Assembly (NCBI GenBank): GCA_017499595.2
Contig: CM039005.1
Location: 2,046,001-2,110,000 of the forward strand
Origin: Psilocybe cubensis
Taxonomy: Eukaryota
Length of the DNA: 64,000 nucleotides
Reading direction: 5' to 3'
This document shows, in pieces, positions 55,207 through 55,906 of this stretch; within the stretch, counting starts at the first letter, position 1, and every line of letters starts with the position of its first letter. The translations under genes were made by a program, and so were the position numbers. Below the pieces are notes generated by a model. The model was not told the origin of the DNA. It saw only the letters and a list, made by a program, of their open reading frames with translations, and did not search any database.

Positions 55207-55906
55207 TCAATCCAGGTTATCGACGTCTGCTTCCAAGGCTTCCCTCTCAAACATGTAAAAGGGTTCGTCATCCTCCCTAATGACCAGACTAGCCACGCTC
55301 GCCGCCTTTTTGATGTTCTTCATGTTGATAAATTTCTTGAAGAAAGATCCAAATCGTGGTTCGCGTGCTGCGAGTTCTTGAATGTCTTCGAATTCTCTTT
55401 CGGTAAGCTGATCAACAAAGGCTTCAAGGGATCTCGCGGATAAATCTTCCGAGGCCTCTCGTTTGAGCATGCCAGCTAGTTTCGATGCCTCCTTTGCCGC
55501 ATTGGAAGCCTTGTCGATATTATGGGGGGTGAAAAAATTCTTGACTTTTCTGAAGAAGGATCCGATGCTAGGTTCACGAAGTACAAGGTCTTCGAGGTAC
55601 TCCAACTCCCTTCGGGTTACTATTTGCTCATCCTCATTCTCCCGCAATGCAAGTTCGGCAATGTGTGCAATCTTTTTAATGCGTGAGGGAGTGGCAGCCT
55701 TTCGGACTTTACGGAAGAAAGAGCCAAAGTTCGGTGTACGAGCTTCAAGTGTCACACCACGCCTTCAATTTCATTAGTTAAGATATACGAAAAGATAAAT
55801 GAGAATCTTACGACTGAATCGAGCTGTCAGTGGCAATAGGGGCAGCGAGGGATGAAGCTGCAGCTAAAATAAGGAATGTTGCCTGAACCGTTGAGATATA
55901 AACCAT
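55207..55906 (-). CDS. Secreted multi-core peptide precursor (Kex2-processed repeat protein-like), 216 aa; exons 55906-55812 and 55762-55207
   Basis: Exon 1 encodes the signal peptide MVYISTVQATFLILAAASSLAAP. A 49-nt GTAAG...CTAAT...AAG intron joins it in frame to the 182-aa ORF, which has three x[FI]GSFF[RK]K cores separated by acidic spacers ending in R. Confidence 0.88.

Follow-up and report, generated by a model that had tools for sequence, protein, structure and literature searches.

A putative kexin-processed precursor of antimicrobial-like cationic peptides in Psilocybe cubensis and its family in mushrooms

Kex2-processed repeat proteins (KEPs) of fungi (Le Marquer 2019; Umemura 2020; Vogt 2022) combine an N-terminal secretion signal with several related cores, kexin-type sites and X-Pro dipeptides of the Ste13 type, have no Pfam domain, and are expected to yield linear Cys-free products. 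Related cores, predicted kexin-type sites, X-Pro dipeptides, the absence of a Pfam domain, and a candidate secretion signal are likewise seen in JR316_0009167, a protein of the mushroom Psilocybe cubensis encoded at 55207-55906 on the minus strand of the window, the whole 64,000-nucleotide stretch analyzed here (contig CM039005.1, positions 2,046,001 to 2,110,000). We describe this protein as a candidate secreted KEP-type polyprotein precursor of cationic peptides resembling antimicrobial peptides (AMPs), a reading to which we give a probability of about one half.

The closest described systems are found in fungi and in animals. The Ece1 protein of Candida albicans is cut at KR sites into non-homologous peptides, only one of which is lytic, and is not known to have acidic spacers or X-Pro dipeptides. 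The peptides of Rep1 from Ustilago maydis are wall-bound, form fibrils, and are not known to be strongly cationic. The animal precursors of magainin, apidaecin, cecropin, melittin, and pleurocidin join cationic helical cores to acidic pro-pieces through basic cut sites, and dipeptidyl peptidases remove X-Pro or X-Ala from them. It is animals that are noted for linear cationic helical AMPs, and the ribosomal mushroom AMPs known to us are Cys-stabilized, for example copsin. As to the protease, Kex2 accepts an aliphatic residue at P4.

The papers cited here and below (PMC9769878, PMC8528282, PMC6339444, and PMC7699649) are represented by excerpts. Ece1/candidalysin is presented as a secreted fungal precursor from which Kex2 and Kex1 release linear peptides, including one cytolytic amphipathic helix, and Rep1 as a KEP from which a set of related amphipathic peptides is released, each a few tens of residues long (PMC9769878); in these respects both would be like JR316_0009167. 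Single-Arg cleavage and Ste13-type removal of X-Pro or X-Ala were seen by mass spectrometry in Coprinopsis cinerea and Pleurotus, and Agaricomycetes possess three kex2 genes together with kex1 and ste13 (PMC9769878). The sequence L-x-x-R is described as an expanded Kex2 motif (PMC8528282).

Gene model and layout of the precursor

The gene begins with the ATG at 55906 and consists of two exons; all parts given below lie on the minus strand. Exon 1 (55812..55906, 95 nt) contains the start codon, a predicted signal peptide of about residues 1 to 21, and the start of a short N-terminal pro-piece. The signal-peptidase site was placed by the -3/-1 rule between ...SSLA and AP, and the signal region is marked by a hydrophobic N terminus, the conserved family pattern MVQ...APSLAxP, and a helix at residues 5-19 in the AlphaFold2 (AF2) model built on the family alignment. 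The intron (55763..55811, 49 nt, phase 2) has GT..AG ends (GTAAG...AG) and a CTAAC/TAAT-like branch region. Exon 2 (55207..55762, 556 nt including the TGA at 55209-55207) encodes the remaining pro-piece, three cores, the acidic spacers, and an acidic tail. The spliced length is 651 nt with the frame kept, and the 216-aa product contains no Cys and no N-glycosylation sequons. The spliced translation made in our script was identical at 216/216 residues to the public entry "hypothetical protein JR316_0009167 [Psilocybe cubensis]". No paralogue was found within the window by tblastn, and in a six-frame scan of the window the three occurrences of GSFF[RK]K and the three of R[DET]P.[FI]GSFF were all inside the precursor open reading frame (ORF).

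The layout was read from the translation. The first cut site, L-E-A-R/T-P (the slash marks the putative cut; residues 37-42, 55732..55749), precedes core 1 (55645..55731), which has 29 aa, a net charge of +6, and a helix-TP-helix form with AF2 helices at 44-54 and 57-72. It is followed by its closing Arg72 and acidic spacer 1 (55576..55644), composed of two acidic pieces of 11 residues each, the one with RR and the other with LVLR at its end, with an AF2 helix at 82-94. An E-P dipeptide with the Ste13-type signature (55570..55575; Pro96 is invariant in an 18-sequence alignment) stands ahead of core 2 (55465..55569), which has 35 aa, a net charge of +4, and again a helix-TP-helix form with AF2 helices at 96-108 and 111-133. 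The dibasic K-R that closes core 2 and acidic spacer 2 (55363..55464) include pieces ending in LSAR, LTER, and LAAR, with R133, L162, and R165 invariant. A second E-P (55357..55362), whose P167 is near-invariant in the 18-sequence and invariant in a 33-sequence alignment, precedes core 3 (55279..55356), with 26 aa, a net charge of +6, and AF2 helices at 167-176 and 179-192. The closing Arg194 and an acidic C-terminal tail ending in ...DNLD (55210..55278) complete the protein; L215 and D216 are invariant, and an -xLD end occurs family-wide. The three cores share the start xFGSFF[RK]K. The TP hinge is present in cores 1 and 2, and core 3 contains no Pro.

This agrees with an earlier note made on the same DNA from the sequence alone. 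Its gene model with the intron at 55763-55811 is reproduced by the public protein, and the core coordinates, lengths, charges, absence of Cys, and TP hinge that it had given for the cores were all recovered. Its remark on a missed signal exon does not hold for the public annotation: because the public protein equals the spliced translation, the exon is already included there, without a name or a function.

Several smaller features were seen in the same region. Core 3 has a three-residue deletion after GSFFKK (55333-55350) compared with its relatives, the residues being present in P. cyanescens and most close relatives. In P. cubensis, five of the acidic stretches bounded by predicted cut sites have a length of exactly 11 residues, and the family median is also 11. 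A C-terminal -x-L-D occurs in 51/59 family proteins (ELD 23, DLD 11, NLD 6, QLD 5, MLD 3, ALD 2, and RLD 1), and this conserved tag is possibly a sorting or recognition signal. A search for RNA of P. cubensis gave none, and the three runs in which the locus was found (X1-X3) are genomic contigs of a second strain in which the intron is present. In this strain the protein differs in core 1 by A54V and in spacer 1 by D76G, and the signal exon has two synonymous changes (variant sites 55631, 55697, 55865, and 55901); a 3-nt insertion at 56128 lies upstream of the gene. About 110 nt past the stop codon, a stretch of 32 nt (55063-55094) matches a separate 545-nt contig of very high depth in run X1 and may therefore belong to a short repeated element.

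Cleavage sites and members of the family

By sequence comparison JR316_0009167 is one member of a sizeable family of about 60 relatives, mostly from Agaricales. A word-indexed search of 5.8 billion proteins gave 16 relatives, and HMMER, run exhaustively over 1.84 billion representatives, gave 48 matches at E<=1e-3, including 29 at E<=1e-10. One of these 48, a 1885-aa protein with unrelated repeats, was dropped by eye, and 59 proteins in all were analyzed; a profile search added four more members.

The family proteins were parsed by cutting after Arg followed by Asp or Glu (plus a few N/S/T/A-Pro and N/S/K-Trp cases), and the P4 residue was not used. The parse yielded 227 cationic fragments (median 33 aa, +6 as cut) and, on the acidic side, 548 fragments with medians of 11 aa and -3, and each protein had 1 to 8 cores. 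After trimming, the 213 distinct cores had a median length of 30 aa (interquartile range [IQR], 27 to 34) and a median charge of +5 (IQR, 4 to 6). Their N-terminal halves contain 12.9% Phe and 17.9% Lys, their C-terminal halves contain 19.5% Ala and are also rich in Val, Gly, and Ser, and in 145/213 a Pro lies within the core, the median position being 16. Asp and Glu together make up 37% of the spacers and Lys 1.0%.

Upstream of the cores, P4 was Leu at 200 of 225 sites. Over all 723 sites at which Arg is followed by Asp or Glu, Leu occupied P4 in 474 and any of L/I/V/M/F in 646, compared with Leu in 69 of the 544 other Arg residues used as a control and a background Leu content of 9.8%; where Lys took the place of Arg, P4 was Leu at one of 47 sites. 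Dibasic sites were few, at 41/723 in the family and two (RR83 and KR133) among the ten Arg sites with an aliphatic P4 in JR316_0009167. In this protein T-P, E-P, and E-P precede cores 1, 2, and 3, placing an X-Pro directly after each putative kexin site. Throughout the family the [DE]-Pro dipeptide occurs only ahead of cationic cores: the next 15 residues have a mean charge of +3.4 after R-[DE]-P (n = 189) and -3.5 after R-[DE]-nonP (n = 536).

The same positions stand out in the alignments. Invariant in the 18-sequence alignment are L91, R94, P96, S100, R133, L162, R165, F169, G170, R194, L215, and D216, and the 33-sequence alignment retains L91, R94, R133, R154, R165, and P167. The most conserved family residues are the P4 Leu, the P1 Arg, the [DE]-Pro, and the core-closing Arg, which to judge from the alignments are the residues that a protease would read, and not those inside the peptides.

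Splicing was followed in seven metagenome loci that were found with one family member as the query. Contigs L003 and L002 are genomic and contain a 58-nt intron (GTGAGT...TAG) that follows codon 29 and is in phase 2. Its position and phase are those of the P. cubensis intron, and the Arg with which the pro-piece opens comes one codon later. In contigs L004 and L001 (about 1.1 kb) exactly those 58 nt are gone, leaving one ORF from MVQ... to the stop; these contigs are best read as spliced transcripts of homologues.

JR316_0009167 is probably a kexin-cut multi-core polyprotein, a reading well supported by these site patterns. Signal peptidase would remove the signal peptide, and a Golgi kexin of the Kex2 type would cut after Arg at the ten aliphatic-P4 sites (L-x-x-R, together with the two dibasic ones). 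A Kex1-type carboxypeptidase would trim the C-terminal Arg or Lys-Arg, and a Ste13-type dipeptidyl aminopeptidase would take T-P, E-P, and E-P off the fronts of the cores. The predicted output would be three linear Cys-free cationic peptides of 26 to 35 residues, together with some seven acidic pieces, each about 11 residues long. In favor of this reading, cores 2 and 3 are better conserved between P. cubensis and P. cyanescens (28/35 and 24/26 identical residues) than the spacers (11/22 and 15/32). The multi-core layout put forward in the earlier note is strongly supported by the invariant cut-site columns, the specific L-x-x-R/[DE] motif, the variable copy number, and a positional orthologue spliced at the same place. 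Searches for homologues, as it had proposed, gave the relatives described above and no match to a characterized family; such a match is what it had named as speaking against it. Its statement that the protein could not be assigned to a named family stands in so far as the relatives are unnamed or hypothetical; the protein is nevertheless a member of a sizeable family, not a one-off, and a KEP by architecture.

Named members were found in P. cubensis (1), P. cyanescens (2), Cyclocybe aegerita (5), and Crassisporium funariophilum (2), with one each in Ephemerocybe angulata, Crepidotus variabilis, Panaeolus papilionaceus, and the ascomycete Podospora didyma; lineages were checked for four of the species. 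All are called hypothetical or unnamed except one C. aegerita protein with the UniRef name "Antimicrobial peptide"; Pfam gave no family for that protein. Members separated by a few genes on the same contigs, with accession numbers 8 apart in C. aegerita (P0025 and P0072) and 5 apart in C. funariophilum (P0026 and P0031), point to local paralogue clusters of the family in some species. The member from P. didyma (Sordariales) has L-x-x-R/DP sites and the core start GFGSFFKK, as in the mushroom members, together with short cores ending in G-G-(G)-K-R and a hydrophobic C-terminal tail; it may be there by descent, transfer, convergence, or contamination.

Protein and profile searches gave no sequence relation outside the family, including none to Ece1, and none to Rep1 was seen in the searches. 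Pfam returned no credible family for JR316_0009167, the PDB contained no sequence matching core 1 or core 3 at E<=10, and the ESM Atlas gave no usable feature match for the precursor, with all structural matches at TM<=0.33. Full-text literature searches with family motifs, locus tags, and related topics returned no paper on the family. Psilocybe KEPs appear in main-text tables of the published KEP surveys, and family members may be contained in the supplementary lists. Membership in Moricin (PF06451) was rejected as a compositional likeness: one of 33 members passes and JR316_0009167 does not. The member that passes, P0028 from C. aegerita, reached 34.4 bits (cut-off, 27.6) in a match spanning four repeats, and the same scan of the 33 members returned 34 unrelated families with repeat-inflated scores.

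Core shape, selection and possible functions

The hydrophobic moment at 100 degrees over the first 13 residues was 0.67 in core 1, 0.69 in core 2, and 0.51 in core 3, with z values of 2.4, 3.6, and 1.7 against shuffles. Averaged over the family, the moment for residues 1 to 13 of the cores peaked at 100-110 degrees (0.57 versus 0.27 in shuffles), the last 13 residues gave a weaker peak (0.36), and in this segment analysis 95% of 211 family cores lay above their own shuffle mean. The AF2 model has a helix-break-helix in every core and helices in the acidic pieces directly upstream, with no tertiary fold (mean pLDDT 56, pTM 0.24), and the Atlas model agrees (pTM 0.22). Each core would have an amphipathic helix rich in Phe and Lys at its N terminus and, after a hinge that is Pro in cores 1 and 2, a C-terminal helix that is weakly amphipathic and has many small residues. 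The helical-face spacing claimed in the earlier note is accordingly seen in the first 13 residues, and not in whole cores or 18-residue windows, which were not above shuffles. Measured against linear cationic helical AMPs, the cores have charges of +4 to +6, no Cys, amphipathicity in their N-terminal 13-mers but not over their whole length, and helices predicted with low confidence.

An antimicrobial role of the cores is plausible, at about even odds overall. The peptides would act on membranes as antimicrobial or other defensive agents, and the acidic amphipathic spacers would neutralize the cationic cores during transit. Such a role is proposed because of the charge, the absence of Cys, the segmental amphipathicity, the Ala/Gly/Val-rich C-terminal halves, the acidic spacers, and the pleurocidin-like GSFFKK start.

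A number of observations weigh against this proposal. Whole-core moments had z values of -0.6, 1.0, and -1.3 against shuffles in cores 1, 2, and 3, and the best 18-residue windows of -0.1, 1.3, and -1.1. That whole cores do not exceed shuffles is compatible with a helix-hinge-helix shape, and the whole-core moments would be modest because the two helix halves are out of phase. The ratio of nonsynonymous to synonymous substitution rates (dN/dS), estimated in the clade with NWFKS cores, was similar in cores (0.13-0.28) and spacers (0.16-0.37), so that the spacers are constrained too; diversifying selection, a frequent finding in defense peptides, was not indicated. The family statistics count related sequences and not independent events. 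The [DE]-Pro dipeptide is a common helix N-cap and need not be a Ste13 signal. On a HeliQuest-like scale, whole-core moments were 0.14-0.25, and the moment of pleurocidin is published as 0.309 (PMC7699649). The C. cinerea KEP peptides that were examined showed no specific function in Vogt 2022 (PMC9769878).

The similar constraint on cores and spacers is also what would be expected of a protein that is never cut but is secreted or wall-associated as an intact chain of alternating cationic and acidic amphipathic helices, with R-[DE]-P as the frequent Asp/Glu-Pro helix cap. The spacers are themselves amphipathic helices (moments 0.54-0.58), and the AF2 helices at 82-94 and 153-165 lie in or beside the best-scoring pLDDT blocks. 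We consider an uncut chain unlikely, since no tertiary fold was predicted by either model, copy number is free to vary from 1 to 8, and the near-invariant P4 Leu and P1 Arg that flank each core at either end, where P1 is hardly ever Lys, resemble a protease subsite more than packing. The acidic pieces, being amphipathic and under purifying selection, may be more than filler.

If the precursor is cut, its peptides could be structural or surface-active in the manner of the Rep1 repellents, residing on the hyphal wall and altering surface hydrophobicity or forming fibrils, and would then not serve to kill other organisms. This would suit cores that are amphipathic in segments only and have C-terminal halves rich in Ala, Gly, Val, and Ser, as well as the purifying selection on cores and spacers alike. 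The cores, however, are strongly cationic and Lys-rich, as is typical of membrane-targeting peptides, and Agaricales already own hydrophobins. Rep1 is a KEP with amphipathic peptides that form amyloid-like fibrils (PMC9769878), but it is described in the excerpt of PMC6339444 as lacking the Ste13 signature, which the family has at 189 sites. On balance a structural role, too, is doubtful.

A role in signaling, with peptides sensed like hormones or pheromones by the fungus itself or its partners, draws on that same Ste13 signature: X-Pro is typical of alpha-factor-type precursors, and a hormone role has been suggested for basidiomycete KEPs that have it (PMC6339444). Purifying selection on cores and spacers would again be expected. 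On the other side, the cores are helix-hinge-helix peptides of 26 to 35 residues with charges of +4 to +6, whereas the peptides detected from alpha-factor-like basidiomycete KEPs have 7-11 residues and end in W (PMC9769878), and receptor ligands would hardly be expected to vary as much from species to species, at one locus, as these cores do in sequence and number. We regard signaling as less probable than either an uncut chain or a structural role.

Neighboring genes and comparison with described systems

Downstream of the precursor gene and on the same strand lies a Mcp5/Num1-type gene for a coiled-coil protein with a PH domain (44922-49530, minus strand). A homologue is found downstream on the same strand in metagenome contigs L002 (2838-5772) and L005 (1684-1930), which makes these loci positional orthologues of the precursor locus. 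Despite the synteny, most cores in L002 and L005 are of another type (NWFKSI...), and core types and copy number differ. Between the precursor and the Mcp5-like gene, P. cubensis has a stretch of about 5.7 kb without a counterpart in L002 and L005. It contains, about 3 kb downstream of the precursor and on the plus strand, a gene for a peptidyl-Lys metalloendopeptidase (Aspzincin_M35, E 8e-14, 51755-52243; ORF 51240-51935). A Lys-specific protease beside Lys-rich cores and Lys-poor spacers may or may not be a coincidence.

Upstream are an ORF divergent from the precursor gene that has no family in the Pfam scan (56810-57595, plus strand), two ORF pieces of a DUF2855 protein between which an intron presumably lies (57974-59268, minus strand), and a protein with the glutamine synthetase catalytic domain Gln-synt_C (62764-63525, minus strand). 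The 10 largest neighboring ORFs (at least 110 aa, 44.9-63.5 kb) gave Mcp5_PH, Aspzincin_M35, DUF2855, and Gln-synt_C, and five of them had no family. Dikaritins, which belong to the peptides made on ribosomes and modified after translation (RiPPs), have cores a few residues long, against 26 to 35 here. A heavily modified dikaritin-like product, with the cores as scaffolds for cyclization, can be set aside as very improbable in spite of the shared layout of signal peptide, repeats, and Kex2 sites (PMC9769878), since the absence of RiPP-tailoring enzymes (DUF3328/UstYa, methyltransferase, P450, or tyrosinase) among the 10 ORFs scanned, from which small or intron-split genes could escape, argues against it.

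Returning to the reading as a precursor of AMP-like peptides, we tentatively propose that Agaricales, and possibly some Sordariales, may carry a large unrecognized polyprotein family that makes linear cationic helix-hinge-helix defense peptides through a monobasic L-x-x-R/[DE]-P code. If true, no earlier family of linear alpha-helical AMPs made on ribosomes would have been described from mushrooms, as far as our literature searches show, and the acidic 11-residue pieces would be built-in neutralizers. If such a design is widespread in mushrooms, evolution would clearly have converged on it, and peptide leads could be drawn from a new source; the family offers a processing code that is simple and testable, and structure-activity studies could use its natural cores, of which there are dozens of variants. 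Should the peptides prove structural or signaling, the family would still be a new, conserved, and expressed class of secreted mushroom peptides.

Compared with described KEPs, the protein contains two or more similar cores, namely three with xFGSFF[RK]K, and is by its predicted architecture a KEP. Its cores are not flanked by the dibasic sites on which three published screens rely, and in that sense it is not a plain member: as far as the excerpts describe them, the published pipelines cut at or check KR, RR, or KK (RK in one), while the sites of this family are mostly monobasic L-x-x-R, in line with the expanded Kex2 motif (PMC8528282). Because only 41/723 sites are dibasic, screens that begin by cutting at dibasic sites probably miss the family. 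Its processing would show that Agaricomycete kexin substrates are recognized through L-x-x-R and not through dibasic sites, and KEP catalogues would then probably undercount. With alpha-factor-like KEPs, in which X-Pro or X-Ala follows the kexin site, JR316_0009167 shares X-Pro at all three cores. It differs from KEPs in general in that the cores are long (26 to 35 aa), cationic, and predicted to be helical, and are separated by long acidic spacers instead of the cut site alone.

In these last respects the family is closer to animal AMP precursors. The flounder AMP pleurocidin has GSFFKK at residues 3-8, shared with the xFGSFF[RK]K start of the cores, and its published whole-peptide amphipathicity is higher than theirs (PMC7699649). 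As the animals belong to another kingdom and no homology was found, the likeness to their precursors would be convergent, and the family, if the proposal is right, would be the fungal counterpart of the multi-peptide precursors of magainin and apidaecin.

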